DNA of 64,000 nt from an uncultured Alphaproteobacteria bacterium (GTDB taxonomy: Bacteria > Pseudomonadota > Alphaproteobacteria > HIMB59 > GCA-002718135). The stretch lies in NCBI GenBank assembly GCA_902615845.1, contig CACMQS010000005.1, forward strand, positions 19,711-83,710, given 5' to 3'. The notes beneath the pieces are model-generated. The model saw only the letters and a list, made by a program, of their open reading frames with translations, had not been told where the DNA came from and made no database searches. Below are positions 8,734 to 62,805 of the stretch, piece after piece. A program made the translations under genes and the position numbers. The number at the start of each line of letters is the position of its first letter. Position 1 is the stretch's first letter.

Positions 8734-9988
8734 ATATGTATTTACATTTATAATATCATGTACTCCAGTAAATTTATCTAAACAACCACCAATAAATTCT
8801 CAAGAGAACAAAAATACAAAAGAACAAGTTATTACAAAGCCGGCAAAAGGAATTTTAAAAAAAAATGAGGATAAAAAACAAACTATTTCAAACAATATTA
8901 AATTAGATAAAACAATTACTGTTTTATTCGCAAAAGATGATGACAAAAAAACAACTAATCAGTTTTTAAATACTTTTGAATTAGGTATTTATAACCTTGT
9001 TGTAAAAGATATAAATTTAGAAATAAAATTTTTTGAAAATAATCAAGATCTACAAAAAATTATAGAAAATAATCTCTCTCCAGGAAAAATATTCTTAGGG
9101 CCAATTCAATCAAAATATACTAAACATTTAAAAAGCTACTGTAAAAATAATATAATATTTTTTTCATTCTCGTCAAAACCCTCACTTGCCAAAGACTGTA
9201 TTTATTTATTGAATTTTTTTCCAAAAAATGAACTTTCGCAACTTCTCTCATATTTAAATAACGATGCTAGGGTAGCGCTTCTTTATCCTGAAAACGAGTA
9301 TGGATATTTAATAAATAGTTTTATTGATAACTTAATTTTTGAAAGCCCTGCTATCTTAGTAAATAGATCCTCCTACAAAGACGATCTTTCTAATGTAAGG
9401 GATGCAATAAAAGAATTAGGTAAATATGAGCTTAGGAAGTACGAACTAAACAGACAAAAACAAATTTTGTCTTCCAAAAAAGATGAAAAATCAAAAAAAA
9501 GACTTAAAAAACTTGAAAGATTTAAAACAACAAGTGATTATGATTTTACACATGTTTTAATTGCTGATTATGGTTTAAATCTTTTGCAGGTTGCCCCACT
9601 GTTACCCTATTATGATATTGATCCAAGTATTGTTCAATTCATGGGCACTGGAGTAATTGATGATAAAACTTTTTTCTACGAACCTTCATTACAAGGAGCA
9701 ATATTTCCGGGAGTACCTGAGACAAGAAGAATTAATTTAATAAATGACTACATGGAAATTTATGAAGAAGAGTTCCTAAGAATTTCAACTCTACCTTATG
9801 ATTTGATAGGTCTTATCAATTTTATTTATACAAATGAATATAAATTTGAAGATCTGTTAAAGCTTTTAAATAATCCAAAAAAAAGATTTGATGGAGTAGA
9901 CGGAAATTTTTATTTTAAAAATAATTTAATTGAAAGAGATTTGGATATATTAAAGATAAGTAATGGTGCATCTTTTGTAATTAATTAG
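8669..9988 (+). CDS. LpoA/LppC-like periplasmic-binding-fold lipoprotein (putative penicillin-binding protein activator); start uncertain
   Basis: Lipobox FIISC, then a type-1 periplasmic binding protein-like body (ALLYPENEYG...). It is divergent from rsmI, as in E. coli yraL/yraM. No ATG, GTG or TTG lies in frame downstream of 8733. The start must therefore be ATG 8669 or a rarer ATT at 8702, both inside rsmI. Confidence 0.6.
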   Translation: MSSKFPIGVATIDKPLTILFITYVFTFIISCTPVNLSKQPPINSQENKNTKEQVITKPAKGILKKNEDKKQTISNNIKLDKTITVLFAKDDDKKTTNQFLNTFELGIYNLVVKDINLEIKFFENNQDLQKIIENNLSPGKIFLGPIQSKYTKHLKSYCKNNIIFFSFSSKPSLAKDCIYLLNFFPKNELSQLLSYLNNDARVALLYPENEYGYLINSFIDNLIFESPAILVNRSSYKDDLSNVRDAIKELGKYELRKYELNRQKQILSSKKDEKSKKRLKKLERFKTTSDYDFTHVLIADYGLNLLQVAPLLPYYDIDPSIVQFMGTGVIDDKTFFYEPSLQGAIFPGVPETRRINLINDYMEIYEEEFLRISTLPYDLIGLINFIYTNEYKFEDLLKLLNNPKKRFDGVDGNFYFKNNLIERDLDILKISNGASFVIN

Positions 9989-15114: not shown

Positions 15115-16248
15115 GTGGCTGATAAAGATTTCTATGATATATTAGGTGTTCAACGAAATGCCAGCGAAGATGAAATAAAAAAAGCTTATAGAAAACAAGC
15201 TATGAAATATCATCCAGATCGTAACAAGGATGATAAAACTGCCGAAAGAAAATTCAAAGAAGCAGCAGCTGCTTACGAAGTTCTTAAAGACTCTGAAAAA
15301 AGATCAGCCTACGATCAATATGGTCATGATGCTTTTAGACAAGGCGGCATGGGAGGAGCGCAAGGCTTTGGAGATTTTGCCGGTGGCTTTTCTGATATTT
15401 TTGAAGAGTTCTTTGGTGGTGGGTTTGGGGGACAATCATCAAGAAGAAGAGGACCTCAGAGAGGAAGTGATCTTCGTTATAACATGTCAATCTCACTTTA
15501 TGAGGCTTTTACAGGAAAGAAACCACAAATCAGAATACCAACATATGTTGGTTGTGATGCGTGTGCAGCAACGGGAAGTGCAGATAAATCAGGGCCAAGT
15601 ACCTGTTCTACATGTGGAGGCGCAGGTAAGGTTCGATCACAACAAGGTTTCTTTTCTATTGAAAGACCTTGTCCAACATGTGGTGGAGAAGGCTCAAGTA
15701 TAAAAAATCCATGTCTAAAATGTTCTGGGACTGGAAACATTAAAAAACAAAAAACAATTTCAGTAACTATTCCTGCTGGCGTTGACACAGGTACAAGAAT
15801 TAGAATAGCTGGTGAAGGAGAGCCAGGTGAGAGAGGTGCTGGAAATGGAGACTTATATATTTTTGTTGAAGTACAAAAAGATAAACTATTTGAGAGAGAA
15901 GAAGAAAATTTATTTTGCGAAATACCAATTTCAATTACTACTGCTATCTTAGGAGGTGAAATAGAAGTACCAACAATAGAAGGTAAAAAAGCCAGACTCA
16001 ATATTCCAGCAGGAACACAATCTGAAACTCAATTTAGGTTAAGAGGAAAAGGAATGAGTATACTTAGACAAAGTAGACGAGGGGATATGTATGTTCAGGC
16101 AAATGTGGAAATCCCGGTAAATCTAAATAATAAACAAAAAGATATTTTGAGGGAGTTTGAAAATGAAGGTGGCACGTCAAAAAAACATAGTCCAAAATCG
16201 CAAGGTTTCTTCTCAAAATTAAAAGAAGTCTGGGAAGACTTAACTTAA
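15115..16248 (+). CDS. dnaJ: Co-chaperone DnaJ
   Basis: J-domain with HPD, a G/F-rich linker and four CxxCxGxG zinc-finger repeats. GTG start is preceded by AAGGAGG. Confidence 0.98.
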
Positions 16249-18135: not shown

Positions 18136-20589
18136 ATGTTACCAAAAAAATCATTAAGTTTTATTTCAATATTACTTTTTTCTTCATTTTTATATAACTG
18201 TGCAGGCGGTGGTGGCGGAGGTGGAACCAGTATAAATTATAATTCAGGACCATCATCCTCTGGGGGAACATTTTTAGACTCAGGAACTTCTGTCACATAT
18301 AATTCTACCACAGCTTCGAACCATCAGGCTTATGATGCTTACGAAAATGTACGTGGCTCAACACAATCTTCACATCAAAACCCATTTGATATTATTAATG
18401 CTTATAAGGCATATGGATATGGTTTTAGTGGAGATGGTCAACAAATAGCTATTTTTGACTCAGGCTATGATACTGATCACTATACTTATCAAGGTAAAAC
18501 AATCTCAACATTTGGAACACTTACTGCAGATAACTCAAATAATAGCGCCTTACTAAATCATGGTAATTTTGTTGCAAGTATTGCTGCTGGATATCTAGAC
18601 ACAAGTTATTCTGGTACTGCTGCTTCACACGGAGTGGCTTATGATGCTGATTTACATTTAGCTAGTTATGATCAAAAAGGATCTGAAACTTATTACCCAG
18701 AGCAATGGGCAAATGCCCTAGATAATGCTTCAAATGCTGTTGTTCAAAATAATAGTTGGGGCTTTACTAATTCAAAATATAATTCCAGTACCTCATATAC
18801 ATCTTCGACACTTGCTACTCTTTCGTCAAATACTGGCCTTACTGCCAATGCTACATCGATTGATAGTTACATTACATCACTAAATAATTTTCAGGATCAT
18901 GGTGTTATAGTGTTTGCAGTATCTAATACTTCTTCTTATGATGATGTTGATGTTGCTGTAGCATTACCAGAAATTTATTCACAACTAGAAGAGGCGTGGA
19001 TAAACGTTGTCAATATTGATATTACAGGATCAGCAGGAAATGAATCATATACAAGAAAATCTGCCCCCTGTGGTTCGACAGCTGAATATTGTGTAGCTGC
19101 TGATGGACAGTATATAAGTGGTGCATTAAGTCATAGTGGAGGACTTTCCTATTTTTCAGCAGTTGGGTCAACAGGCTCATCATTTGCTGCACCTCAGGTT
19201 TCTGGTGCGGTTGCAATATTAGCCGAAGCCTTTCCATCCAATACACCAGAACAGTGGACTGACCGATTGTTAGCATCAGCCGATAACTCTATGTGTACAG
19301 CATCTGGCAATGTTTCATTTGCTAACGGAATTACACATGCATACTGCTCTGCATATGGACATGGCGTCATAGATATTTATGCAGCTTTAAGACCAATAAC
19401 ATCTTCTAGAATGCAAGAATCAATATTGGTTGGAAGCAACATTGAAACAGCTGCAGTTCATAATTTAAATAAATCTAATTTTAGTAACGGACTTATTTTT
19501 GGTGATTCAGTTTCTAATTCTTTTAAAGGAAAAAAAAGTTATTTTTATGATGCATTATACGGTGCGTTTGAATACAGTTTTGATAATCATTTAGTTACTG
19601 AAAAACCAAAAAGAATTAGTAATTTAGAAAGTTATTTTAATGAAAATAAATTTAAGTCTTTTTCTACTTCAGTTGATAATTCCGAAACAATGTTAAATTA
19701 TTCTTTTATAGTAGATGAAAATAATTATTTGGTGCCGGAAGAAGGTATTTCTTACTCTGTTAGTAACAATAATTATAATCTAAACACTTCTTACAATTAT
19801 CCCTTAGATATAAATTTAGGCTACGTTTCCTCAGATGATATTGACATATTTAATAATAACGAAAACATATTATTACCTTACTTAACTAGCAAAGATAACT
19901 CATATAATGTGAGCACAAATATTTTTAATGGCAAAGATTCACACATAAGTCTTGGCTACATGCAGACAGAAGATAAATTTTCTTTGGATAAAAAAGGTTA
20001 TGTTTTGTCTTATGTAAATCTTAAAAAAGATAGTGCTATTCTAACAGGTATTACTACTGAAAATGGTGGTTTTTTAGATAATAAGTTTAACGGGGCATTT
20101 TCTCTGGATGAAAATGACAATCCTACAAATTTTATTGGTTTTAGACAAAATGCTAAATTAGGAAAAAATGAACTTATGTTTGTTTCTTCTTATGGATCAA
20201 CAAAAGTTTCAACATCACCAAATTCACTCATTACAAATATTGATAATGTAAATACAACAAGTTTTTCTGCAAATTTAAGTAGAAAAGAATTACTAAATAA
20301 AAAAGACAGACTTATATTTTCTATTTCACAACCACAAAGAGTTGAAAATGGCGTAATGACATACTTGGTACCAAAATTGAATGATAAAGACGGAACACTT
20401 AATTATAATCAACATGAAACAAAACTTAAACCTTCTGGTAGACAGATTGATATTGCTTTAGATTATATTATTAATTTAAGTGAAAGCATGAACCTTTCTT
20501 TTCAAGGAAAGGTAATAGATGATTTCTCTCATGTAGAAAAAGATGCTTTTGATGCTTCACTAATAACATCATTTAAATATAAATTTTAG
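18136..20589 (+). CDS. Subtilisin-like (S8) serine peptidase, lipoprotein, with C-terminal beta-barrel (autotransporter-like) domain
   Basis: Lipobox LYNC followed by a Gly7 linker. Catalytic triad context: AIFDSGYD (Asp), NHGNFVASIAAG (His), NNSWG (oxyanion Asn) and GSSFAAPQVSGAVAIL (Ser). The C-terminal ~380 aa is N/S-rich with alternating hydrophobic strands and ends in ...SFKYKF. Confidence 0.8.
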   Translation: MLPKKSLSFISILLFSSFLYNCAGGGGGGGTSINYNSGPSSSGGTFLDSGTSVTYNSTTASNHQAYDAYENVRGSTQSSHQNPFDIINAYKAYGYGFSGDGQQIAIFDSGYDTDHYTYQGKTISTFGTLTADNSNNSALLNHGNFVASIAAGYLDTSYSGTAASHGVAYDADLHLASYDQKGSETYYPEQWANALDNASNAVVQNNSWGFTNSKYNSSTSYTSSTLATLSSNTGLTANATSIDSYITSLNNFQDHGVIVFAVSNTSSYDDVDVAVALPEIYSQLEEAWINVVNIDITGSAGNESYTRKSAPCGSTAEYCVAADGQYISGALSHSGGLSYFSAVGSTGSSFAAPQVSGAVAILAEAFPSNTPEQWTDRLLASADNSMCTASGNVSFANGITHAYCSAYGHGVIDIYAALRPITSSRMQESILVGSNIETAAVHNLNKSNFSNGLIFGDSVSNSFKGKKSYFYDALYGAFEYSFDNHLVTEKPKRISNLESYFNENKFKSFSTSVDNSETMLNYSFIVDENNYLVPEEGISYSVSNNNYNLNTSYNYPLDINLGYVSSDDIDIFNNNENILLPYLTSKDNSYNVSTNIFNGKDSHISLGYMQTEDKFSLDKKGYVLSYVNLKKDSAILTGITTENGGFLDNKFNGAFSLDENDNPTNFIGFRQNAKLGKNELMFVSSYGSTKVSTSPNSLITNIDNVNTTSFSANLSRKELLNKKDRLIFSISQPQRVENGVMTYLVPKLNDKDGTLNYNQHETKLKPSGRQIDIALDYIINLSESMNLSFQGKVIDDFSHVEKDAFDASLITSFKYKF

Positions 20590-20978
20590 TGAAAAATAAA
20601 TTACTATTTATACTTTCAATTACATTTATCTTCTCATGTTCTTCCCAATTAGATGAAATAAATTATAAAGATCAAAATAAGAGATTTGATTACTCATCTA
20701 TAGATAGTTTCAAAAAAACATTGGTTGAACATTTTAAGGATGATTTAAATAGGTTTGATAAGTCAAAACTTGAGGAAATTGAAAATAAATTCATCACTAA
20801 CACAACTTATGATAGCATCATTAAAAATAATTCTCATGAAAAATTTATTTCCAATAATCCTAATAAAATTTACATATTTATAAACTTTATTTTATTAAAT
20901 GAAAATTCAGATCAAATAATATTTGAATCAATGCAATCTTATTTACGCTATTTAACTAAAGATAAAATTTTAAGATAA
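20589..20978 (+). CDS. Small hypothetical lipoprotein, translationally coupled to the S8 peptidase
   Basis: 129 aa with signal/lipobox ITFIFSC. Its GTG start overlaps the protease stop (TAGTG). I recognise no family. Confidence 0.55.
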   Translation: MKNKLLFILSITFIFSCSSQLDEINYKDQNKRFDYSSIDSFKKTLVEHFKDDLNRFDKSKLEEIENKFITNTTYDSIIKNNSHEKFISNNPNKIYIFINFILLNENSDQIIFESMQSYLRYLTKDKILR

Positions 20979-24600: not shown

Positions 24601-25086
24601 AAAGATTATGTTGATCACTTTAAGGAGTTTAGTGATACATCAATTCTTTCAACAGAATTATTTTTTTATGGTCCTCAACAAGATAAAGAATACACGATAG
24701 AAATTGATAAAGGAAAAAACCTAATCTTAAGATATTTAGCAAAAAGCGAAGTTAATAGTAATGGAAAGTGCTCCGTGTTTTTTGAAATTAACGGACAACC
24801 AAGAACAATAGATATAGAAAATAAAGAATTTTCAAAAAATATAACACAGAGAGCTAAAGCAGATGATAATAATTTGGATCATGTCGGATCTCCTTTGCCA
24901 GGCCAAGTTGCTAAAATATTCGTTCAATCAGGTAGAAAGGTGATTAAAGGTGATAAGTTACTAGTTATCGAGGCTATGAAAATGGAAACTACAATAAACG
25001 CTGATAAAAGTGGAACAATTAAATCAATTAATGTTGCATCTGGTGATAATGTGGAAACCAAAGATTTGCTTGTTGAAATTAGCTAG
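21646..25086 (+). CDS. pyc: Pyruvate carboxylase (single-chain)
   Basis: Biotin carboxylase ATP-grasp (GGGGRGMRVV), carboxyltransferase HFHTHDTSG and a C-terminal biotinyl motif EAMKME. ATG 21646 is preferred over TTG 21643. Confidence 0.95.
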   Translation: MKKISKILAANRSEIAIRIFRAAEESGIKTAAIYSKEDRFAIHRFKTDESYLVGEGKGPIQAYLDIDSIIKIAKDAKVDAIHPGYGFLSESPELAEQCEKNDITFIGPSKEILKRFGNKTEAKKVAEEAKVGTVPSVLVTKENLKSVEKEVEKIGYPVIVKASWGGGGRGMRVVRSSNELIDQITTAQSESLKAFGKDEVFIEKFLEDAAHIEVQILGDRHGNIIHLFERDCSLQRRHQKIIERAPAHFLENKTREEICNAAIKIAKQVKYFGAGTVEFLFDKKSGEFYFIEVNPRIQVEHTVTEEVTGIDIVKAQIKIAEGEKIGDHPALPKQEDIHLNGFAIQCRVTTEDPLNNFMPDYGKIMTYRSAAGFGVRLDAANASSGSIITPYYDSLLVKVTTWAKHQDDCIKRMDRALREFRIRGVKTNLVFLESLINNKDFLEGNYNTNFVDTKKELYAYNPQKDRASKIVSYLGNIIVNGHNDISGRVSSNSTVEVQIPISNIKSEKNNYVKDLITLGPEKFAKKIKETPYTLITDTTMRDAHQSLLATRMRTDDLINIAEYYSENLSNLFSLECWGGATFDTSMRFLKEDPWDRLARLNKRAPNLLKQMLFRGSNAVGYKNYPDNVVKHFIQQSAEAGIDVFRVFDSLNLIDNMRVAIDEVRNQNKICEGTICYTNDVTDPNEKKYTLKYYIDLVKDLEKAGAHIIAIKDMAGLAKPNAIKKLVNEIKQTTDLPIHFHTHDTSGTSSASVLAAIEEKVDIVDLAIDSMSGLTSQPALGSIVSIMKQNHQDPKLDEEAIRTLSLYWEQVRQNYHAFETDFKGGSSDVYLHQMPGGQFTNLKEQARSLGITTDKWGMVANKYAEVNQLFGDIVKVTPSSKIVGDMALYMIANDLSKEDVLDPKKEISFPASVIEFFKGEIGIPHGGFPKELQKKVLGNTKPLTKRPGEVLESVDLDKEFKNLEVEIGMKVNQTHLASYLMYPKVFKDYVDHFKEFSDTSILSTELFFYGPQQDKEYTIEIDKGKNLILRYLAKSEVNSNGKCSVFFEINGQPRTIDIENKEFSKNITQRAKADDNNLDHVGSPLPGQVAKIFVQSGRKVIKGDKLLVIEAMKMETTINADKSGTIKSINVASGDNVETKDLLVEIS

Positions 25087-25564
25087 TAAAGTCGTATTCT
25101 TTATAACATTCTTCTATCGAGTTCTTTGTATTTATTAGCTCTCCTAAAGAGTCTCGAAATTCAAAATATTCTACTCTCTTAATATTTGAGTTTATATTAA
25201 AAAAGATAAACAACCTACATGAACTACTATCATATCGCATCATATGCACCGAGCCATCAGATCGTGCTAAATTAGGCTGTCCCAGTTTTTGTTTAATCTC
25301 AGCAAGTTGTTTTCCCATGAAATTTATTTCTGCGATTTTTTGCTGCTCCTTAACTATAGTTTTTTCCTCTTCTTTTTCTTCAGTTATAATTTGTTGTTCT
25401 TCAACAATAGTTTTGTCTTCAATAATTTCTGGTTCTTTTTTTATAATAGTTTCTTCAACTTTATCTTTTACTACCGCCCCAACTTTAACGACTTCTCTTC
25501 CAACTTCAATAGTCGTACAGCTAGATAAAAACACTAATGTTAAAAAATAAATTGATAACCGCAT
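25079..25564 (-). CDS. Hypothetical lipoprotein with an E/K-rich repeat linker and a small C-terminal globular domain (BamE/SmpA-OmlA-like, tentative)
   Basis: Signal/lipobox VFLSSC. Imperfect repeat KTIVEEQQIITEE / KTIVKEQQKIAE. Its 3-prime end overlaps pyc by 8 nt. Confidence 0.55.
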   Translation of the reverse strand: MRLSIYFLTLVFLSSCTTIEVGREVVKVGAVVKDKVEETIIKKEPEIIEDKTIVEEQQIITEEKEEEKTIVKEQQKIAEINFMGKQLAEIKQKLGQPNLARSDGSVHMMRYDSSSCRLFIFFNINSNIKRVEYFEFRDSLGELINTKNSIEECYKEYDFTS

Positions 25565-30973: not shown

Positions 30974-31039
30974 TTATTATTTCATTTTAATAATTTTTAG
31001 TCTTTTGAAACCTATATAGTTAATAAAAAAGGAGTTAAT

Positions 31040-31333
31040 ATGTTGGTTAAATTAACACAAGATTTAAAAAATGGTTTTGGACCATGGAAAGAAATGCTTC
31101 TTGCAAATGGCCATAAACTTAAAGAACATGGAATGACTTGTATATTTGCAGCTACAGAAAAAGATAATGATAACAAGTTAACTGTTATTTTAGATTTTGC
31201 TACACCCGAGGGTATGATGGGTTTTAAAAATGATGAAGAATTAACACAAAGAAGAATTGAAGCTGGTGCTATGGTGGAAACTACAGTAATGACACCGATG
31301 ACTTCTGAAGCAGTCACGAATTTTTCAGGTTAG
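31040..31333 (+). CDS. Small hypothetical protein (97 aa)
   Basis: Good SD (AAAGGAG) 7 nt upstream of the ATG. Soluble alpha/beta-like composition. I cannot assign a family confidently. Confidence 0.5.
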   Translation: MLVKLTQDLKNGFGPWKEMLLANGHKLKEHGMTCIFAATEKDNDNKLTVILDFATPEGMMGFKNDEELTQRRIEAGAMVETTVMTPMTSEAVTNFSG

Positions 31334-34321: not shown

Positions 34322-34912
34322 TTAGATTAAATGACCAAGTTTACTTTTCTTAGTTGAGATATATTTCTCATTATACTTATTGGTATCTGAAAAAATAGGA
34401 ACCCTTTGATTTACTTTGATACCCATATCTTCAAGCGCTTTTATTTTTTTTGGATTATTAGTCATTAAATCTAATTTTTTGATTGCTAAATATTTTACCA
34501 TTCCAGCAATATTTTCATATGTTCTTTCATCATCTTTAAACCCTAATTGATGATTGGCTTCAACAGTATCTAGTCCTTTGTCTTGTAAACTATATGCTTT
34601 AATTTTATTTGAGAGACCAATACCTCTTCCTTCTTGTTGAAGATAAAAAACAACCCCTCTTCCATTTTGAGCGATTTGTTTTAATGATTCAGTTAGTTGA
34701 AATCTACAATCACATCTCATACTAAAAAAAGATTCCCCTGTAATACATTGCGAATGAATTCTTGATAAAACTGGCTCATTAGTAAGCAAGTCACCCATAC
34801 ATATTGCTAAATGATCTTTAGATTCATTTTCATCTGTAAAGGCATGTACAGTGAACTCCCCAATATCTGTTGGAAGTTTACTAGTTTCAATAAACTTTAA
34901 TTTGTCTGACAT
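34322..34912 (-). CDS. ribA: GTP cyclohydrolase II (monofunctional)
   Basis: Zinc cysteines HSQCITGESFFSMRCDC and the QEGRGIGL motif. 196 aa with no RibB domain. Confidence 0.92.
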   Translation of the reverse strand: MSDKLKFIETSKLPTDIGEFTVHAFTDENESKDHLAICMGDLLTNEPVLSRIHSQCITGESFFSMRCDCRFQLTESLKQIAQNGRGVVFYLQQEGRGIGLSNKIKAYSLQDKGLDTVEANHQLGFKDDERTYENIAGMVKYLAIKKLDLMTNNPKKIKALEDMGIKVNQRVPIFSDTNKYNEKYISTKKSKLGHLI

Positions 34913-35385
34913 TATAGTTTAGTTGGATTTGCTGCACCTTTGTATACTTCTTCAGGATCAAAAACTTTTTCTTTCTCTTCAAATTTAAGAATAACTTTAG
35001 AGCTAGAACTATTCAAAGGAATGCTTCTATAAAAACATGATCTATATCCTACATGACAGCTGGCACCACCTTCGACATCAACTCTTAACCAAACACAATC
35101 TTGATCATCATCAATTCTTATTTCTTTTATCTTCTGCGTTAATCCACTTGTTTTACCTTTATGCCAAAGAGTATTTCTACTTCTAGAAAAATATACCGCT
35201 TCGCCCAAACTTATAGTTTTTTTAAAAGCTTCTTCATTCATATAACCTTGCATAAGTAGCTCGCCAGATGAAAAATCTGTTGTTACAACTGGTATTAGAC
35301 CATTTGAATCAAATTTCGGAGCAAGCTCATTTGACTCTTCAACTTGTTCTATAGATTTTCTTTTTTCAAATTGAATGTTATTCAT
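34912..35385 (-). CDS. hisI: Phosphoribosyl-AMP cyclohydrolase (monofunctional)
   Basis: [26 protein letters not shown] and SCH motifs. It overlaps hemB (8 nt) and ribA (1 nt). Confidence 0.9.
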
Positions 35386-36379
35386 TTTTTAATTTTTCAG
35401 CAGCTTCAAATGCGAAGTAAGTTAGTATACCATTTGCTCCAGCTCTTTTAAAAGATAAAAGAGATTCCATTATAACTTTTTCATTTAACCAACCTTTATT
35501 AATTGACTCTTTTATCATCGAATATTCACCAGATACTTGGTAGGCAAAGGTTGGAACTTTAAATTCTGATTTTATTCTAGAAATAATATCAAGATAAGGC
35601 ATACCAGGCTTAACCATTACCATATCTGCTCCTTCACTTATATCTAATCCAACTTCTCTAATTGCTTCATCACTGTTTGATGGATCCATTTGATATGTTA
35701 ATTTGCCATCTTTACCTAAACTAGAACCAGAACCTATAGCATCTCTAAAAGGACCGTAAAAACCTGAAGCATATTTAGCAGCGTAAGAAAGTATGAGAGT
35801 ATCTGTTAAATTATTTGAATCTAATGCAGTTCTTATTCTTCCAACTCTTCCATCCATCATATCCGACGGGGCGATTACATCACAACCAGCATTCGCTTGG
35901 ACCAGAGCCTGTTGTTCCAAAACCTCCAAAGTTTTATCATTATCTATTTTATCATTTATAACTAAACCATCATGCCCATGGTCCGTAAAAGGATCTAACG
36001 CAACATCACATACAATACCAATATTTGGAAAATCTTTTTTGATACTTTTAATTGATCTGCATACCAAATTGTTTTCATCTACAGCTAAACTTCCCTCAGA
36101 ATTTTTAAGGCCACTTTCAATTTGCGGAAAAATTGCAATAGCAGGAATATTAAATTTAACAGCTTTTTCTACTTCACTTAAAAGTTTATCAATAGAGTAT
36201 CTGCTTACACCAGGCATCGAATTAATAGGATCATCAACCTTGTTTCCCTCGCATACAAATAGAGGCAAGATTAAATCATTAACACTAAGTGTATTTTCAG
36301 CAACTAAACGACGAGAAAATTCTTTCATTCTATTACGTCTAAGTCTTGTACTTGGAAACTTGCCTTGCATGTTATTCAT
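35378..36379 (-). CDS. hemB: Porphobilinogen synthase (delta-aminolevulinate dehydratase), Asp-rich metal-site type
   Basis: [14 protein letters not shown] in place of the Cys-rich zinc site, with active-site lysine context [11 protein letters not shown]. Confidence 0.96.
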
Positions 36380-40149: not shown

Positions 40150-41355
40150 GTGCTGAACAATAAAGAATATCTAAATAGACTATATCAATCAGATAAACCT
40201 CTTATAATTTACAAAACTGATAAGGGTTATGATATCTATACTGATTTTTCTAGAAGAATTATTATTAACAAAAAGAATCTAAAATATTTTCTTAATATCC
40301 AATCAAAGTCAAAAAAATCTAAGATTGAAGAATTGAATTGTTATGTTGGTTTCTTTGGTTATAAGCTTCTTTGTGAAAATATAGGAATAAAGTTTCCAAA
40401 ACAGCAATCTAAAAATTTTCATAGTGGCGTATTTTACAAGCCACAAACTAAAATTAGTATTGGTAAAAAAATAGTAATCAAAAGCATTAAAGCCAATTTT
40501 AGAAATATAAGTATCAATACAAAAAAATATTTACAGTTAAATAAAAAGTTTAATCTTAATTTATCTTTAAAGCAGTACTCTAAGATATTTAATGATTTCT
40601 CTAAAAATATTAAACAGGGAAAAACTTATCAAATTAAAATAGCTCAAACATATTCGAAAAAAGGTAATATCAATTCTATTGATCTTTTTTGGAAGCTAAT
40701 GAAAATGAATGAATCACCTGAAAGTTTTCTTATCAGGGAAAAAGACTATAATATCGTAAGTTGTTCACCAGAGACACTCATATTGAAAAAAGATAACACA
40801 ATTAGAACTAAACCTATTGCTGGAACATTAAGAAAAACAAAGCAGTTAAATAAAAATAAAGCTCTCACATTCTTTAGAAGAAATGAAAAAGAAACTAAAG
40901 AACATAATATGATTGTTGATATGGAAAGAAATGATCTGTCTAAAATTTGTAAAACTGGATCTGTAAAAATAGATAAACTAAAAAAGGTTGAGGAATATCG
41001 TGATCTTTTTCATTACGTTACAACAATCAAGGGAGTTATAAAAAATAAAATGAGTAACCATGATATAATTTCTTCTTTAATGCCAGGAGGTTCAGTCATT
41101 GGTTGTCCAAAAATTAGTACTATTCAACTTCTAAATAGAAAAGAAAAATTTGACAGAAATATTTATACAGGCAGTTTTGGAATTATACATTCAAATGGTG
41201 ATATGCGATTTAACATAATGATTAGAACACTACTTAATTTCAAAAATGATATTGAATTATCAGTTGCTAGTGGTGTGATCTTAGGTAGTACTGCAAAAAA
41301 AGAATATAATGAAAATTATATTAAAGCTAAATCGCTTTTAGATCTATTTAACTAA
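40150..41355 (+). CDS. pabB: Aminodeoxychorismate synthase component I
   Basis: Chorismate-binding motifs PIAGT, VDMERNDL, PGGSVIGCPK and YTGSFG. GTG start. The N-terminal region is short and divergent. Confidence 0.8.
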   Translation: MLNNKEYLNRLYQSDKPLIIYKTDKGYDIYTDFSRRIIINKKNLKYFLNIQSKSKKSKIEELNCYVGFFGYKLLCENIGIKFPKQQSKNFHSGVFYKPQTKISIGKKIVIKSIKANFRNISINTKKYLQLNKKFNLNLSLKQYSKIFNDFSKNIKQGKTYQIKIAQTYSKKGNINSIDLFWKLMKMNESPESFLIREKDYNIVSCSPETLILKKDNTIRTKPIAGTLRKTKQLNKNKALTFFRRNEKETKEHNMIVDMERNDLSKICKTGSVKIDKLKKVEEYRDLFHYVTTIKGVIKNKMSNHDIISSLMPGGSVIGCPKISTIQLLNRKEKFDRNIYTGSFGIIHSNGDMRFNIMIRTLLNFKNDIELSVASGVILGSTAKKEYNENYIKAKSLLDLFN

Positions 41356-41912
41356 TGATTTATCTCATTGATCATGAAGACTCATTCACATACAATTTAG
41401 CTCATCTACTAGATAGTATTGAGCCAACATTTGTTTCAAATTATTATGAAATAAATCAAACAAAACTAGAAAAATCTTCGACCATCGTTCTTTCACCAGG
41501 CCCTGGTGAACCAAAAGATTATCCATTAACAACTAAGATTTACAATAAATATAAAGGAAAGAAAAAAATATTAGGAATATGCTTAGGTTTCCAACAAATA
41601 GTTTTTTGTGAAGGAGCTAAAATAGTTCAACAAAAAAATATTCTTCATGGTTATCAGAGTCATATTAAAGTTACTAACGATAAATCAATTTTTAAAAAAA
41701 ATTTTAATTTCCTTGGAGGTCGATATCATTCCTTAAAAATGGCTGAACCATTTGTTTCTCAATCAATGATAATTACAATGCGTTGTGTAAAAACAAATGT
41801 AGCAATGGCGGTTGAAGATGATATTAATAAAGTCTATGGATTACAGTTTCACCCAGATTCATTTTTAACTCCACATGGAAAATATCTTATTAAAAAAATC
41901 CTTTCACGCTAA
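41355..41912 (+). CDS. pabA: Aminodeoxychorismate synthase glutamine amidotransferase component II
   Basis: ILGICLGFQ nucleophile and GLQFHPDS. TAATG coupling to pabB. Confidence 0.85.
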   Translation: MIYLIDHEDSFTYNLAHLLDSIEPTFVSNYYEINQTKLEKSSTIVLSPGPGEPKDYPLTTKIYNKYKGKKKILGICLGFQQIVFCEGAKIVQQKNILHGYQSHIKVTNDKSIFKKNFNFLGGRYHSLKMAEPFVSQSMIITMRCVKTNVAMAVEDDINKVYGLQFHPDSFLTPHGKYLIKKILSR

Positions 41913-42630
41913 GAATTTTAAATTACTAAAGTTCAATTCTCTTTGGGGATACAAGGGCATCTTTACAACCATTAGACTATTTGGCAAAGAGCCAAATTTT
42001 ATCTTAGTTGATCAGCATTTAAAAAAACTAAATAAAGATTTAAGATACTTTGGCATTGATATTAAAATTTCAAAAAATTTTTTAACTAATTTTTTAAATA
42101 AATATTCTAAAATTAAAAATTACGATCACCTCCTAAGAATTGCAGTCACAAAAAAAATAATCTCATTATCTGTACGTAAACGAAACAAAGATCATAAGTA
42201 TTTTACTGCAAAATTTTTTAGATTCCAACGGGCTTTACCTAACTTCAAAAACTTACAATACAAAAAAATAATTTCTTTACAAAAAAAAATTAATTTACAA
42301 AAAGAAGAGATTCTTTTTTATTTTAGCAACAAAATTTTAGAAGGCTCTACGACCAATTTAATTTTTGTAAACGGTAATAAATTATTCACTCCAAAAAATT
42401 ACTATTATCATGGAATTACTCTAGAATACTTAATTAAAAATCTACCTTATAAAATTCATAGAACAGATATTAATATTTCTAGTTTACATCAATTTAGTGA
42501 AATACTTCTAGTTGGTTCTGGTAAAGGTGTGGTTAGTATTTCTTTTATTAAACAATTTAATTGGTATAGGTCTTCAATGAAAATATATAATTATTTATCA
42601 AAAAAATATTCAAAAATATTATTGAAATGA
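41875..42630 (+). CDS. pabC: Aminodeoxychorismate lyase-like class IV aminotransferase-fold protein
   Basis: Size, position between pabA and folP, and the class IV fold pattern (..EGSTTNLIFV.., GITLEYL). The sequence is very divergent and the start is uncertain (38-nt overlap with pabA). Confidence 0.6.
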   Translation: MENILLKKSFHAKNFKLLKFNSLWGYKGIFTTIRLFGKEPNFILVDQHLKKLNKDLRYFGIDIKISKNFLTNFLNKYSKIKNYDHLLRIAVTKKIISLSVRKRNKDHKYFTAKFFRFQRALPNFKNLQYKKIISLQKKINLQKEEILFYFSNKILEGSTTNLIFVNGNKLFTPKNYYYHGITLEYLIKNLPYKIHRTDINISSLHQFSEILLVGSGKGVVSISFIKQFNWYRSSMKIYNYLSKKYSKILLK

Positions 42631-43445
42631 AATTAGGAAAATATAATTTTAAACTATCTAGTCCAACGGTAATGGGAATATGCAATGTTACTCCTGACTC
42701 TTTTAGTGATGGTGGAAAGAGTTTTAAAAGTTCAGATGCACTAAAAAATATCAAAGAAATGGTTAAAAATGGAGCAAGTATTATTGATATTGGGGCAGAA
42801 AGTACAAGACCTGGTTCAGATCCATTAACACACATAGAAGAAGTTAAAAGATTAGATCCGATATTAAAAAAATTACCAAAAAATAAATTTGTCATATCGG
42901 TTGATACTAATAAAATTGAAACTCAAGAATATGCATTAAATATGGGAGCACATATTATAAATGATGTGTTCGGTGGCTCAGAAGATTTATTCTTTTTAAC
43001 TAAAAAATTTAAAACAGGTTTAATTTTAATGCACACACCTGCGCCACCCAAAACTATGCAAAAGAAAATACACTCATATAATAATGTTGTACAAGATATT
43101 AAAAAAATATTTCTTCAGAAAATTAAACAATTAGAAAAAATAAAAATTCCTTCATCCAAAGTTTGGTTTGATCCAGGTATTGGTTTTGGTAAAAATTTAA
43201 AACAAAACATAGAAATCATGCAAAAAATTAATCAATTTAAGTTTAAGGGATATGGATTACTATTAGGATCATCTAGAAAAAGCTGGATCAACTTCATAGA
43301 TAAGAGTGAAACAAATCAAAGATTGGGAGGTTCAATCGCTTCTGCATTATATTGTTATCAAAAGGGAGTTGATATATTTAGAGTTCACGACATAAAAGAA
43401 ACGTCTCAATCATTAAAAATTTTTGAAAAACTATGTTCAAAGTAG
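42627..43445 (+). CDS. folP: Dihydropteroate synthase
   Basis: MGICNVTPDSFSDGG, IIDIGAESTRPG and DPGIGFGK motifs. Confidence 0.93.
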   Translation: MKLGKYNFKLSSPTVMGICNVTPDSFSDGGKSFKSSDALKNIKEMVKNGASIIDIGAESTRPGSDPLTHIEEVKRLDPILKKLPKNKFVISVDTNKIETQEYALNMGAHIINDVFGGSEDLFFLTKKFKTGLILMHTPAPPKTMQKKIHSYNNVVQDIKKIFLQKIKQLEKIKIPSSKVWFDPGIGFGKNLKQNIEIMQKINQFKFKGYGLLLGSSRKSWINFIDKSETNQRLGGSIASALYCYQKGVDIFRVHDIKETSQSLKIFEKLCSK

Positions 43446-43777
43446 AAATTAAAAACTTATCCATCAGTGCAAATATAGGTATCACTGCTCAAGAGAGAAA
43501 GAAAAAACAGTTGTTAAAGGTAACATTAGAATTTAGTTATCCTGTTAAAAACTCACTAGATTTAAATAATATAAATAATGTGAAGGATTATTCATCTGTT
43601 ACAAAATATTTAAAAACCTTCATAAAGGAGTCTCAATCTCATACTCTTGAGCATTTAATAATAAAAACATCTAATGTTCTTGAAAAAAAATTTAAAATTA
43701 AAAAAGTTAAAATTACAATTAATAAAACAGCTGTAGCAAAAAAATATGGAGCTGACTCACTAAGTGTATCAAACTGA
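43433..43777 (+). CDS. folB: Dihydroneopterin aldolase
   Basis: 114 aa. N-terminal pattern I..L.....IGI...ER...Q, and position between folP and folK. Confidence 0.8.
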   Translation: MFKVEIKNLSISANIGITAQERKKKQLLKVTLEFSYPVKNSLDLNNINNVKDYSSVTKYLKTFIKESQSHTLEHLIIKTSNVLEKKFKIKKVKITINKTAVAKKYGADSLSVSN

Positions 43778-44264
43778 AACAATAATCGCACTTGGCTCAA
43801 ATCTAGGTCATGCTATATTTAATTTACGGTGTGCTGTTAGAGAGTTAAAAAATATTGGTAATATAAAAAAATTTGCAAATATTTATGTTTCTTCTCCTTA
43901 TGGATACAAATCGCAAAGTAATTTTTTTAACACCGCAATAAAACTATTAACCAACCAGCAGCCATTAGAATTAATAAATAATATTTATGAAATTGAAAAA
44001 AAATTAAAAAAAAATAAAAAAATTATCAATGGTCCAAGAAACATTGATTTGGATATTATTTTTTTTGGCAAACAAATATTTAATAAAAAAAATTTAATAA
44101 TTCCTCACCCAAGAGCAGCTGAAAGAGATTTTGTGTTATATCCAATACTTGATATTGATCCATTTTTTAGACATCCACTTGAAAAAAAATCAGTAAAAGT
44201 CTTATCGCAAGAGTTGCAAAATAAATATATTATTAAACGTTTATCCTACCGAAATTTGATTTAA
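43764..44264 (+). CDS. folK: 6-hydroxymethyl-7,8-dihydropterin pyrophosphokinase
   Basis: IALGSNLG, GPRNIDLDIIFF and IPHPRAAERDFVLYPI motifs. Confidence 0.9.
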   Translation: MYQTETIIALGSNLGHAIFNLRCAVRELKNIGNIKKFANIYVSSPYGYKSQSNFFNTAIKLLTNQQPLELINNIYEIEKKLKKNKKIINGPRNIDLDIIFFGKQIFNKKNLIIPHPRAAERDFVLYPILDIDPFFRHPLEKKSVKVLSQELQNKYIIKRLSYRNLI

Positions 44265-44891
44265 AAAATCCTTGAGTTTTGATTTAGAAATTAAATTTCT
44301 CTGATTTTTCAAGCTTCTAGAAATATCTAATCCAAAAGGTGTTATTTGTTTTAGAATGGTGGCAACATTTTTTTTGTCTATACCGCCACCAATATAAACT
44401 GGAATATTTTTACTTTTTATAAACTGTATTTGTTTAATACTTTTTCTCAATGAATACTTTTTAATACTCTTTTTCCTATAAACATTCATATCAAAATAAA
44501 TAACATCAACAATTTTTCTAATTGATTCAATGTATTTTTTATCAAAATTTTCTGGATTAATTGCAATACCAATTTTTAATCTTCTAAATATTTTTTTTAT
44601 TTTTAATAAATCTTTTTTGGGAAAATGATATGAACATGAAATTGTCTTTGGTTTTGTAAAATCTATTTGCTCTATTAGCTTGTCTAAAGATACATACCGA
44701 GTCAGAAGCACTGATTCTATCTTATAATTTTTACATTCTTTAATTAATGATTGTATTTTTTTATCACTAACTGTGTTTGGTCCATTTAAATTTTTACTTG
44801 CAAAACCCAATGATTTTATTTTATTTTTATGTGCCACTTCAACAGATTTCACATTTGTTATGCCACAAATTTTTAGAGGTATATTTTTCAT
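44241..44891 (-). CDS. Phosphoribosylanthranilate isomerase (TrpF)-fold protein, isolated from other trp genes
   Basis: N-terminal LKICGIT (catalytic Cys context), (beta/alpha)8 periodicity and a C-terminal PVYIGGGI phosphate loop followed by GLDISRSL. Its 3-prime end overlaps folK by 24 nt. Confidence 0.7.
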   Translation of the reverse strand: MKNIPLKICGITNVKSVEVAHKNKIKSLGFASKNLNGPNTVSDKKIQSLIKECKNYKIESVLLTRYVSLDKLIEQIDFTKPKTISCSYHFPKKDLLKIKKIFRRLKIGIAINPENFDKKYIESIRKIVDVIYFDMNVYRKKSIKKYSLRKSIKQIQFIKSKNIPVYIGGGIDKKNVATILKQITPFGLDISRSLKNQRNLISKSKLKDFLNQISVG

Positions 44892-44943
44892 TAAATTTTA
44901 TTTTTAAAAATTATAAATATATGTAAACTATTTTTTTTTATAT

Positions 44944-61278: not shown

Positions 61279-62196
61279 ATGAAAATTTTAGGATCTGAAA
61301 TCACACCCTATAAGACATATTTAAATAGACGAAAGTTTATAAAGGGATCTTTGGCTAGTGCTATGCTAGCTACTGTTCCATCATCAGCATTTGCAAATCA
61401 TGAAAGTGATCCTTCAATTTATAGTAAAAATTTAAATGAAAACGATAAACTTAATTCTTACGAAGAAATTACTACCTACAATAACTTCTATGAATTTGGT
61501 ACTCACAAAAAACATCCTCATTTAAACTCTGGAAATTTTAAACCTAGGCCATGGACAATAAAAATAGATGGTCTGGTGAAAAAACCTCAAACATTTGACT
61601 TAGAAAAAATTTTATCAAATGTAACAATAGAAGATAGAGTGTATCGATTAAGATGTGTTGAAGCTTGGTCCATGGTCATTCCTTGGCAAGGCTTTCAACT
61701 ATCTGAACTTATAAAAATGGCTGAACCCTTAAATTCAGCAAAGTATGTTCAATTTGTAACTGTGTTCAGACCAGAAGAAATGCCAGGTCAGCAAAAGAGA
61801 ACAATCATTTGGCCATATAGAGAAGGGCTTCGAATGGATGAAGCAATGAATCCTCTAACAATATTAGCAACTGGATTGTATGGTCATGAAATGCCTAATC
61901 AAAATGGTGCACCCATAAGATTAGTTGTTCCATGGAAGTATGGTTTCAAATCAATTAAATCAATTGTGGAAATTAGATTTTTAGATACTCAACCTGAAAC
62001 ATCTTGGGAAACTTTAGCTCCTTGGGAATATGGTTTTTATGCTAATGTTAATCCTAATGTTAATCATCCAAGATGGAGTCAAGGAACAGAGAGACGAATT
62101 GGAGAGTTTAAAAGAAGAGAAACACTTATGTTTAATGGCTATGAAGAAGAAGTAGCACATCTCTATAAAGATTTAGATTTGACTAAATTTTATTAA
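61279..62196 (+). CDS. msrP: Protein-methionine-sulfoxide reductase catalytic subunit MsrP (YedY, molybdopterin)
   Basis: Tat motif NRRKFIKG, YNNFYEFG, RCVEAWSMVIPW and NGAPIRLVVPWKYGFKSIKSIV. It is collinear with E. coli MsrP. Confidence 0.93.
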   Translation: MKILGSEITPYKTYLNRRKFIKGSLASAMLATVPSSAFANHESDPSIYSKNLNENDKLNSYEEITTYNNFYEFGTHKKHPHLNSGNFKPRPWTIKIDGLVKKPQTFDLEKILSNVTIEDRVYRLRCVEAWSMVIPWQGFQLSELIKMAEPLNSAKYVQFVTVFRPEEMPGQQKRTIIWPYREGLRMDEAMNPLTILATGLYGHEMPNQNGAPIRLVVPWKYGFKSIKSIVEIRFLDTQPETSWETLAPWEYGFYANVNPNVNHPRWSQGTERRIGEFKRRETLMFNGYEEEVAHLYKDLDLTKFY

Positions 62197-62199
62197 TGA

Positions 62200-62805
62200 A
62201 TGTTTTCAACAAAAAATTTTAACCGCAGTAAACCTGTCTTATTTATTTTAATTCTATTTCCTAGTCTACTCTGGGCGTACCAATTTGTTACTGGGAATCT
62301 TGGAGTAAATCCAATTGAAAAACTAATGGATGAGTTAGGTCTAATGGCACTCAGATTAATAATAATAACTCTTATGATTACTACTCTATCAAATATTAGA
62401 CCTTTAAAATCAATAGTTGTATTACGAAGAATGATTGGACTTTTTGCTTTCTATTATGTCTGTTTGCATTTCTCCACTTACATAGTTTTAGATCATTTTT
62501 TAGATATGCAATTTATCATACAAGATATTATAAAAAGACCATTTATAACTTTTGGTTTTATAAGCTTTCTTTTTTTAATCCCACTTGCTAGCACTTCAAC
62601 AAACAATATGATTAAACGATTAGGTTTTAAATTATGGAAGAAAATTCATTATTTAATTTACCCAGTAGCCATTCTAGCTAGTATGCATTTTTATGTTTTA
62701 GTTCGTGCTGATAAAACTGAACCAGTTATTTATATGGGAATAATTATCCTCTTATTACTTCAAAGAATATTTAAAAGACTTACTCGTCATCAGTTGGTTC
62801 AGTAA
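62200..62805 (+). CDS. msrQ: MsrQ (YedZ) haem-b membrane subunit
   Basis: 201 aa with six TM segments, ferric-reductase-like conserved His residues, directly after msrP. Confidence 0.88.
   Translation: MFSTKNFNRSKPVLFILILFPSLLWAYQFVTGNLGVNPIEKLMDELGLMALRLIIITLMITTLSNIRPLKSIVVLRRMIGLFAFYYVCLHFSTYIVLDHFLDMQFIIQDIIKRPFITFGFISFLFLIPLASTSTNNMIKRLGFKLWKKIHYLIYPVAILASMHFYVLVRADKTEPVIYMGIIILLLLQRIFKRLTRHQLVQ

Follow-up and report, generated by a model that had tools for sequence, protein, structure and literature searches.

A TrpF-like gene linked to folK in marine bacteria of the order HIMB59: a candidate RibA-dependent entry into folate synthesis

We describe a gene for a TrpF-like isomerase, here called trpFL, that converges on and overlaps the last gene of a six-gene folate block. 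The gene lies in a 64-kb window of assembly GCA_902615845.1 (contig CACMQS010000005.1, forward-strand positions 19,711-83,710), and "window" refers below to the whole of this stretch. The best explanation of trpFL is that it is a specialised descendant of phosphoribosylanthranilate (PRA) isomerase that forms part of a folate module. We propose that it encodes a dedicated isomerase converting the RibA product to dihydroneopterin phosphate, which would make it a specialised version of the TrpF/RibA bypass of Chlamydia; we lean towards this assignment, if only slightly. The preliminary description of this DNA had read the locus as a candidate RibA and TrpF bypass of FolE and FolQ. Consistent with that reading are a TrpF-fold gene that is under selection, retains the catalytic dyad and is locked to folK, a ribA gene beside hisI, and a folate block that lacks the FolE and FolQ steps.

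The host belongs to the order HIMB59 (AEGEAN-169), an abundant marine bacterial group, and is not SAR11 proper. A SAR11 host had been assumed because the first matches were labelled Pelagibacteraceae; this was dropped because AG-337-I02, the source of a related locus with 88% identity (L045), is a GTDB genus within the order HIMB59/AEGEAN-169 (PMC8692485). The host is a free-living planktonic alphaproteobacterium. Within SAR11 proper, members of Pelagibacter carry folE. In Ca. P. ubique HTCC1062, FolE1 is present and the fol genes are scattered (SEED table, PMC1971073). An exact-protein look-up of the DnaK encoded in the window returned no record.

The trpFL gene (44241-44891, minus strand) encodes a protein of 216 amino acids. 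As initially described, it has a TrpF fold, a KICGIT context around the catalytic Cys and a GGGI loop (residues 168-171), and it shares a 24-nt 3'-3' overlap (44241-44264) with folK. The Pfam PRAI model (PF00697) scored trpFL at 23.0 bits, a borderline match to the gathering score of 22.7. None of the 11 NCBIfam TrpF equivalog models was reached, the scores being 18-41 bits (maximum 40.7) against cut-offs of 172-380, and the relatives P0121 and P0128 behaved in the same way on the TrpF family cut-offs. Across the trpFL family the equivalog scores were 26-57 bits, compared to 93-181 bits for other TrpF-like matches from the same search. The AlphaFold2 model of trpFL had a pLDDT of 96.1, and when it was compared with the PDB by Foldseek the ten best matches were all TrpF (including 4aaj, 5lhf, 1dl3, 1nsj and 1lbm), with TM scores of 0.74-0.83; identity to the solved TrpFs was 15-20%. 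The protein is thus predicted with high confidence to be a TrpF-type (beta-alpha)8 barrel. The gene is under purifying selection, with a dN/dS of 0.06-0.13 (about 0.1), indicating that it is a functional, selected gene. It founds a small family confined to the HIMB59-order clade, whose members NCBI labels "hypothetical protein" and IMG names "phosphoribosylanthranilate isomerase". Judged by its sequences, this family appears to be a strongly diverged, paralogue-like copy of TrpF.

Alignment with the TrpF of T. maritima separates what trpFL has kept from what it has lost. Cys9, Asp134, G168-G170, D189 and S191 of trpFL align with C7, D126, S157-G159, D178 and S180 of the T. maritima enzyme, and the catalytic pair C9 and D134 is invariant across 70 family sequences. 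Arg36 of the T. maritima S-x-R motif is replaced by Asn39, and His83 of the QLHG motif by Ser87, both replacements being invariant in the family. The GGSGxxFDW loop after strand 6 is gone: its residues G133-G136 align with I143-Y146 of trpFL, the FDW part is unmatched, and I143, at the position of the lost GGSG, is again invariant. Further invariant polar residues peculiar to the family are S32, T40, N112, Y132, N136, Y138, K195 and N199 (70 distinct sequences). Arg36 and the beta6-alpha6 loop together form what we take, from T. maritima structural work, to be the anthranilate-binding side of TrpF. With residue roles assigned in this way, trpFL appears to lack the residues that canonical TrpF uses on the anthranilate part of its substrate, and the protein probably no longer handles PRA.

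The folate block consists of six plus-strand genes (40150-44264), every one of which overlaps its successor; here the coordinates and overlaps of the preliminary description were reproduced. The pabB gene (40150-41355) encodes a short form of aminodeoxychorismate synthase component I of 401 amino acids (PF00425 Chorismate_bind, 246.9 bits), for which the top NCBIfam models were PabB models, under cut-off. It is followed by pabA (41355-41912), the glutamine amidotransferase component (PF00117 GATase, 120.8 bits; TIGR00566, 120.1 against a cut-off of 121.05), and by a gene for a pabC-like aminodeoxychorismate lyase of the class IV aminotransferase fold (41875-42630; PF01063 Aminotran_4, 92 bits), for which the top NCBIfam models were pabC models, all under cut-off. 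The downstream pterin branch is complete by profile matches in the window: folP, for dihydropteroate synthase (42627-43445; Pterin_bind, 238 bits; TIGR01496 DHPS, 282 bits, cut-off 162.6), folB, for dihydroneopterin aldolase (43433-43777; PF02152, 64.2 bits; TIGR00526, 52.6 bits, cut-off 45), and folK, for HPPK (43764-44264; PF01288, 110.6 bits; TIGR01498, 124.6 bits, cut-off 54.1). The block therefore encodes all of the dedicated folate steps minus those of GTP cyclohydrolase I and FolQ.

Comparison of related loci revealed that the association of trpFL with folK is conserved. The two genes were convergent and adjacent in 86 of 89 loci; among the remaining three, one had a frameshifted trpFL that still adjoined folK and two were cut by the contig end. 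The linkage was accordingly found in all 87 informative loci, down to 38% identity, and the family was found solely with the fol block. Overlap of the 3' ends was also kept in relatives, measuring 35 nt in two loci (L073 and L076) and 44 nt in two others (L084 and L215). The surroundings of the seven-gene block varied. The neighbour on the trpFL side was of four kinds (DUF1800, cdd, an ATPase-inhibitor zeta gene with malate synthase, and katG) and that on the pabB side of two (DUF2141 and an iron-binding protein), such that both flanks had been exchanged at least three times with trpFL staying with folK. In loci L083, L084 and L215 the entire block lay in another neighbourhood, trpFL still included. 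A lineage at 39% identity had trpFL 4 nt after katG on the same strand, and the thrS-cysS-DUF2141 run was likewise conserved beside the block. When HIMB59-order contigs were sought through a hisI anchor for loci without the block, all five that were examined had both the block and ribA. No trp genes were found in the 64-kb window or within 10 kb on either side of the 89 loci, and the claim that no other trp gene lies nearby thus held for the scanned ORFs of the window. By its conserved neighbourhood, trpFL is a probable functional member of the folate gene cluster.

Membership of the cluster does not extend to shared transcription. Because trpFL is convergent with folK, its transcript is separate from that of the fol genes; it lies on the opposite strand and has its own upstream spacer of 52 bp (44892-44943), which separates it from a divergent DUF1800 gene and at which it must have its own promoter. 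A promoter scan gave a single weak -35/-10 match on the minus strand (44927-44900), not above chance, and a terminator scan likewise gave nothing above chance. Scans near ribA, trpFL and pabB found no riboswitch or other RNA signal, and no riboswitch or common regulatory signal that joins ribA, trpFL and the fol genes.

The putative supplier of substrate, ribA, is located about 9 kb from trpFL (34322-34912, minus strand). The monofunctional, stand-alone GTP cyclohydrolase II called in the preliminary description was confirmed by NF001591 at 268.6 bits (cut-off 148), with TIGR00505 at 245.6 bits. Next to it is hisI (34912-35385, minus strand; NF000768, 153 bits), which served as a positional anchor. 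The distance between ribA and hisI was at most 1.5 kb in 62 of 64 loci, and the remaining two are truncated by the locus end. In Pelagibacter the divergent neighbour of hisI is folE, whereas in the HIMB59 clade ribA takes that place. RibA may have no more than a housekeeping role in riboflavin synthesis, and its adjacency to hisI may be a coincidence.

The genes that trpFL would replace were sought in the window and beyond it. All non-spurious window ORFs of at least 100 amino acids were scanned with the Pfam and NCBIfam models, and none of these ORFs matched GTP cyclohydrolase I (PF01227), FolE2, a Nudix hydrolase or a trp enzyme. A tblastn search that used E. coli FolE as query and covered the window and 84 related loci (1.57 Mb) gave no match at E<=10. 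With both the ORF scan and the FolE search empty, the statement that the window has no folE, folE2 or folQ was borne out, and the designation of the cluster as folE-less is valid for the window and for 10 kb on either side of the related loci, which is its reach. For the genome as a whole, we infer that FolE is absent. A codon-biased DNA pattern (CEHH...QER) recovered 119 real folE genes from metagenome contigs. The groups identified were Pelagibacter (23 loci), Flavobacteriales and Marine Group II/III archaea, along with a large group that its N-terminal motif, judged by eye, marks as Bacteroidota-like. Several further groups had no taxon. None of the 119 was tied to HIMB59, which is weak negative evidence; tetranucleotide similarity was not discriminating for sorting the folE contigs by taxon. 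Among the matches listed, which were saturated by Pelagibacter, FolE and trpFL had no contig in common. Nor could a canonical trpF be attributed to the clade, by composition or cluster names, among the matches of the representative search.

On the basis of its genomic context, we infer a substrate for trpFL, the candidate being 2,5-diamino-6-ribosylamino-4(3H)-pyrimidinone 5'-phosphate. The stand-alone RibA would make this compound from GTP. The TrpF-like enzyme, with Cys9 as base and Asp134 as acid, would open the ribosylamine and carry out an Amadori rearrangement, and the ribulosyl product would ring-close to 7,8-dihydroneopterin 3'-phosphate. An unspecific phosphatase, FolB, FolK and FolP, together with pABA from PabBAC, would then lead to dihydropteroate. 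Such a route would replace both GTP cyclohydrolase I (FolE) and the pyrophosphatase FolQ. In its widest form, the proposal is that trpFL represents a new isofunctional, TrpF-derived family that has given up PRA and serves as a dedicated dihydroneopterin-phosphate synthase, so that the seven-gene block and the housekeeping RibA together would need neither GTP cyclohydrolase I nor FolQ, the first such case in free-living bacteria. We judge the chances for and against this wider proposal to be evenly balanced.

The proposed route has a precedent in Chlamydia, as the preliminary description had stated: there, dihydroneopterin monophosphate is made from the RibA product by TrpF, which also complements an E. 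coli strain deleted for folE (Adams et al. 2014, mBio, PMC4161248). Both systems have a TrpF-fold enzyme that carries the catalytic dyad, a genome that encodes GTP cyclohydrolase II, the genes folB, folK and folP, and a cluster without folE and folQ; the chemistry proposed for trpFL is identical, from the RibA product to dihydroneopterin monophosphate. The likeness to Chlamydia extends to the proposed chemistry but not to the use of an ordinary TrpF, trpFL belonging to a diverged, apparently paralogue-like family. The chlamydial enzyme is the normal TrpF of the organism, still isomerises PRA and is unlinked to the fol operon, whereas trpFL is without the Arg36, His83 and GGSG-loop signatures and physically overlaps folK. 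The systems also differ in the source of pABA (CT610 in Chlamydia, PabBAC in the HIMB59 clade) and in the host, an obligate intracellular parasite in one case and a free-living planktonic alphaproteobacterium in the other. The absence of folE has been shown for Chlamydia; for the HIMB59 clade it covers the window and 1.57 Mb of related loci.

Other known enzymes allow trpFL to be placed further. With canonical TrpF (EC 5.3.1.24; T. maritima 1NSJ/1LBM) it shares the (beta-alpha)8 fold, the Cys base and Asp acid at the same positions, and the phosphate-binding loops after strands 7 and 8; it differs in being without the SPR Arg, the QLHG His and the GGSGxxFDW loop and in having a fol-gene rather than a trp-gene context. 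PriA, the dual HisA/TrpF enzyme of Actinobacteria (discussed in PMC4161248), is likewise a TIM barrel for Amadori rearrangements that has taken on a second phosphoribosylamine as substrate. PriA, however, is homologous to HisA and works in two amino-acid pathways, whereas trpFL is TrpF-derived and folate-linked, and its window has a separate, ordinary hisA (5170-5910, from the window scan). FolE2 (GTP cyclohydrolase IB, COG1469) is a non-orthologous replacement of FolE that is often clustered with folate genes (PMC1971073) and fills the same pathway hole as is proposed for trpFL. In contrast to trpFL, it is a T-fold enzyme that works by a different mechanism, and FolQ is still needed because FolE2 makes the triphosphate; no FolE2 domain was found in the window.

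A potential concern is whether trpFL is simply the PRA isomerase for tryptophan, evolving fast in an AT-rich, streamlined genome and located beside folK by chance. The protein has kept its catalytic residues (Cys and Asp) and its phosphate loops, the Pfam PRAI score is just reached, IMG calls the relatives phosphoribosylanthranilate isomerase, and the window shows no other trpF; with no second, canonical trpF attributed to the clade among the matches of the representative search, trpFL may still be the sole TrpF. We nevertheless regard this explanation as improbable. Arg36, the QLHG His83 and GGSGxxFDW are exchanged family-wide for other invariant residues, and every TrpF equivalog score is far under its cut-off, whereas housekeeping proteins of the same window clear theirs easily (thrS 702 against 384, hemB 485 against 297, DHPS 282 against 163). 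In addition, the gene is never beside trp genes and always beside folK, through several rearrangements. That constancy also bears on whether there is any functional link, given that the adjacency might be synteny inherited within one clade and the folK overlap a by-product of genome compaction. All of the loci do come from one order, and streamlined genomes keep long syntenic runs, such as thrS-cysS-DUF2141 beside this very block. Synteny of this kind is difficult to reconcile with repeated exchange of both flanks around an unbroken trpFL-folK pair, or with relocation of the block as a whole, trpFL included, in three loci, and we consider it very improbable that the link is an accident of position.

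A different possibility is that trpFL is a TrpF-fold isomerase or lyase for another substrate, pterin-related or not (for example in a back-up or salvage role, or on another phosphoribosylamine), with dihydroneopterin triphosphate still being made by a FolE or FolE2 encoded elsewhere. The assignment of its substrate comes from context, other non-canonical TrpF-like groups occur in unrelated contexts (P0172 and P0162), and in the 39% lineage the gene directly follows katG, all of which would be compatible with such a function. To our knowledge, few phosphoribosylamines are available in cells; among them, only the RibA product feeds the pathway of the six linked genes, and this chemistry can provide precisely the step missing from the block. 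Nor would a back-up role account for the exclusive occurrence of the family with the fol block. Some real weight remains with a different substrate, but we think it unlikely, and prefer the reading of trpFL as a dedicated isomerase of the RibA product.

If that reading is true, the RibA/TrpF folate route is more than a stopgap of degenerating parasite genomes: a free-living marine lineage of global abundance would have it as a selected, dedicated solution, served by an enzyme family that can be recognised as such. Free-living bacteria would thereby gain their first example of such a pathway, in a group that ranks among the more abundant ocean bacterioplankton; in the literature searched, no paper connects folate with TrpF-like genes in SAR11, HIMB59 or any other free-living bacterium. 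Predictions of folate or pterin auxotrophy made from genomes by looking for folE would change. A 2026 survey that predicted extensive folate auxotrophy in the order HIMB59 used FolK and FolP rather than folE (PMC13408713). Enzymes of this kind among "hypothetical proteins" would be recognisable by an annotation signature in which Cys and Asp are kept, Arg36 is changed to Asn and His83 to Ser, and the GGSG loop is absent. The family would also illustrate how nature has adapted a TIM-barrel Amadori isomerase from an aromatic substrate to a pyrimidine one. Regarding the non-canonical TrpF-like groups elsewhere, P0172 is situated amid genes for sugar kinase and PFK, and P0162 has an extension at its C terminus that by eye resembles MazG/HisE.

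The folate genes in the window form a chain of six on the + strand (40150–44264) in which every gene overlaps the next one, as stated in the preliminary description and borne out by the ORF positions. Profile scores support pabB (Chorismate_bind, 247 bits), pabA (GATase, 121 bits), a pabC-like class IV aminotransferase (92 bits), folP (DHPS TIGR01496, 282 bits), folB (64 bits) and folK (TIGR01498, 125 bits). On the − strand lies trpFL (44241–44891), a TrpF-like ORF of 216 aa positioned tail-to-tail with folK, and its coordinates agree with the described convergent overlap of 24 nt with the folK 3′ end. Of the dedicated steps that lead to dihydropteroate, the block of seven genes lacks only the one or two that convert GTP into dihydroneopterin phosphate. 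Scans with Pfam or NCBIfam found no GTP cyclohydrolase I, FolE2, Nudix hydrolase or tryptophan enzyme among the plausible window ORFs, consistent with the earlier claim that folE, folE2 and folQ are absent from the window and that no other trp gene is nearby, and tblastn with E. coli FolE gave no match to either the window or 84 related loci. A 112-aa ORF antisense to the pabC/folP junction (42557–42895, −) is almost certainly spurious.

The gene trpFL is convergent with and adjacent to folK in 86 of the 89 loci that have it, the remaining three being one frameshifted copy in the same place and two loci that end inside the gene; all six pab and fol genes are present in 80 of the 89. On the trpFL side the neighbor varies: the window has DUF1800, while L048, L056 and others have cdd; in L076, L078 and L208 it is an ATPase-inhibitor zeta gene together with malate synthase, and L083, L084 and L215 have katG. 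The pabB end borders either DUF2141 or an iron-binding protein, after which come fur, znuA, znuCB and zur. Because the association of trpFL with folK survives rearrangement on both sides, and because their overlap (24, 35 or 44 nt) is conserved, the seven genes move as one block. With FolK or FolP missing as its criterion, a 2026 survey predicted folate auxotrophy to be extensive in order HIMB59 (PMC13408713), which suggests a patchy distribution of the block there, although no locus without it was found among the HIMB59-order loci examined.

Individual loci differ at the ends of the block. L050 and L051 (9552–11128) look mosaic: their pab/fol genes and cysS/thrS are 95–99% identical to those of the window, identity falls to 87–89% for folK and 80–81% for trpFL, and cdd abuts trpFL because DUF1800 and DUF1501 are missing, a pattern pointing to a breakpoint, from recombination or an indel, at the trpFL end. 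In L077 (10001–10649) trpFL is apparently frameshifted: the locus has one extra nucleotide, and the best alignment spans residues 1–144 only. Either the single-cell assembly contains an error here or the gene is a pseudogene. In a lineage of 38–39% identity (L083, 409–3228; L084, 7829–10648; L215, 7844–10663) trpFL is on the same strand as katG and starts 4 nt past its stop, which may mean co-transcription with the catalase-peroxidase; the other side of the block is bordered by an iron-binding protein, fur, znuA, znuCB and another gene of the Fur family, zur-like. A short-chain dehydrogenase lies beside the block, between DUF2141 and cysS, in L001–L003 (13542–14991, with a bacteriorhodopsin-family gene also in this interval) and L072–L074 (~15230–15940), and several marine contigs unrelated to these (L108, L156, L163, L198) have such dehydrogenases beside folE. 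FolM or a pteridine reductase-like enzyme is a possible identity for them.

By sequence, trpFL is only marginally recognizable as a TrpF, with a Pfam PRAI score of 23.0 bits (gathering score 22.7) and scores of at most 40.7 bits against NCBIfam TrpF equivalogs (cut-offs 172–380). The predicted structure is clearly that of a TrpF: the AlphaFold2 model (pLDDT 96.1) has TrpF proteins as its ten best solved-structure matches (TM 0.74–0.83, identity 14–20%). Residues were aligned with T. maritima TrpF, the sequence of which was checked against 1LBM/1NSJ. The catalytic Cys (C7, trpFL C9), the catalytic Asp (D126, D134) and both phosphate loops (S157-G159, G168-G170; D178 and S180, D189 and S191) are retained. 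Arg36 of the S-x-R motif is replaced by Asn39, His83 of QLHG is replaced by Ser87, and the GGSGxxFDW loop after strand 6 has no counterpart. Both N39 and S87 are invariant across 70 distinct family sequences, as are the polar residues S32, T40, N112, Y132, N136, Y138, K195 and N199. From structural work, we take Arg36 and the GGSGxxFDW loop of T. maritima TrpF to bind the anthranilate moiety; on that view, the site in trpFL would preserve the ribose-phosphate half and the Amadori chemistry, with the aglycone half rebuilt. The gene is under purifying selection (dN/dS 0.06–0.13).

The family is small. A search of 1.84 billion cluster representatives returned only 229 proteins at E≤0.001; fragments aside, two more full-length representatives (56% and 38% identity) make up the family, and TrpF-like proteins of 21–34% identity come next. 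Tested TrpF-like proteins outside the family scored 93–181 bits with TrpF models, compared with 26–57 bits for its members. NCBI labels the members 'hypothetical protein', and IMG names them PRA isomerase. None of the papers searched describes the gene. A second non-canonical TrpF-like group (P0162, P0159, P0172, P0173; L214 4804–5454) reads SGPG where the S-P-R motif would be, lacks the QLHG His and keeps the GTGxxHDW loop. P0162 (330 aa) carries a C-terminal extension of ~110 aa that appears MazG/HisE-like by eye, and P0172 is found near MFS, ROK kinase, PFK, PIG-L and SIS genes.

With one genome scanned for each GTDB species, 124 relatives were found and 80 kept. The kept loci all come from marine genomes of single-cell or metagenome origin, among them Pelagibacteraceae bacterium AG-337-I02, SAG-MED31 and MarineAlpha5 bins. 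In GTDB, AG-337-I02 is a genus within order HIMB59 (PMC8692485), which is AEGEAN-169, the former SAR11 clade V (PMC8692485, PMC10308909), and because this relative belongs there the window is not from SAR11 proper. The placement matters because Ca. P. ubique HTCC1062, a SAR11 member, has FolE1, with scattered fol genes (SEED folate table, PMC1971073 supplement). We sought folE in marine metagenome contigs with a codon-biased DNA pattern for CEHH...QER, suited to AT-rich genomes; 119 of 120 matches were real folE genes. The largest alphaproteobacterial group (23 loci) was named 'GTP cyclohydrolase I FolE [Candidatus Pelagibacter sp.]', and folE is the divergent neighbor of hisI in every Pelagibacter-group locus with enough flanking DNA. 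Of the other folE groups from the marine metagenomes, those that could be named were Flavobacteriales, Marine Group II/III archaea and a Bacteroidota-like group; no group among them could be linked to HIMB59, which counts only as weak negative evidence. Some Pelagibacter-like FolE proteins in the database, P0303 and P0304 (269–270 aa), have an extra QueF-like domain (PF14489 + PF01227), either a fusion or a gene-call run-through.

In the window, directly downstream of hisI, is the ribA that had been described as a stand-alone monofunctional GTP cyclohydrolase II (34322–34912), an assignment upheld at 268.6 bits (cut-off 148). Comparison of hisI contexts (window 34322–35385; L206 9456–10609; L089, L160, L196 and other group A loci) placed ribA within 1.5 kb after hisI in 62 of 64 HIMB59-order loci, the other two being cut at hisI; sometimes one gene, such as a sulfotransferase, is inserted. 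A GTP cyclohydrolase II, ~9 kb from trpFL, thus occupies the position that GTP cyclohydrolase I has in Pelagibacter, a related streamlined alphaproteobacterium. This position is suggestive but is not proof, because ribA may simply be the riboflavin gene. No riboswitch or shared signal was found for ribA, trpFL and the fol genes.

The preliminary description had proposed a RibA-TrpF bypass on the Chlamydia precedent, which the literature confirms: in E. coli, loss of folE can be made good by Chlamydia TrpF, which also turns the purified RibA product into dihydroneopterin monophosphate, so that FolQ is unnecessary (Adams et al., PMC4161248). The proposal is partly supported. The TrpF fold, the catalytic Cys and Asp and the folK linkage favor it; the difference from Chlamydia lies in the enzyme, since Chlamydia employs an ordinary TrpF with a second job, whereas here a diverged TrpF-like family is fixed to the fol block and has probably lost activity on PRA, the TrpF substrate. 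We lean toward trpFL as a candidate dedicated isomerase for the RibA product that would bypass FolE and FolQ. RibA would make the diaminopyrimidinone ribosylamine phosphate, trpFL would carry out its Amadori rearrangement, ring closure would give dihydroneopterin phosphate, and a phosphatase would precede FolB, FolK and FolP.

A less probable reading, but one that carries some weight, gives the TrpF-fold enzyme a different role in genomes that have retained FolE. That trpFL is an odd but ordinary TrpF appears improbable, and linkage to the fol genes without function is more improbable still.

Some minor features were also observed. In L144 (956–5018) a Bacteroidota-type folE is directly upstream of cysS-thrS, its CysS being 59.5% identical to that of the window and its ThrS only 47.5%; CysS from other folE-cysS contigs of the Bacteroidota-like group is only ~38% identical, and cysS may have been transferred between lineages. 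In the window lineage hemB lies between thrS and hisI (35378–36379); it is not at that position in the deeper lineages L078, L208, L211 and L224, and all that L076 has is a hemB-like gene (39%) in another place. This pattern fits the heme auxotrophy in HIMB59 reported in work that PMC10308909 cites. Window ORFs at 8576–9988 (+), 20589–20978 (+), 25079–25564 (−) and 31012–31317 (−) had no Pfam match, and the first of these (470 aa) overlaps the end of an rsmI-like gene (7885–8733) by 158 nt. An MsrP-like molybdopterin oxidoreductase and its MsrQ-like ferric-reductase membrane partner (61279–62805) imply, as predicted proteins, that the genome uses molybdenum cofactor, which belongs to a separate GTP-derived pterin pathway.
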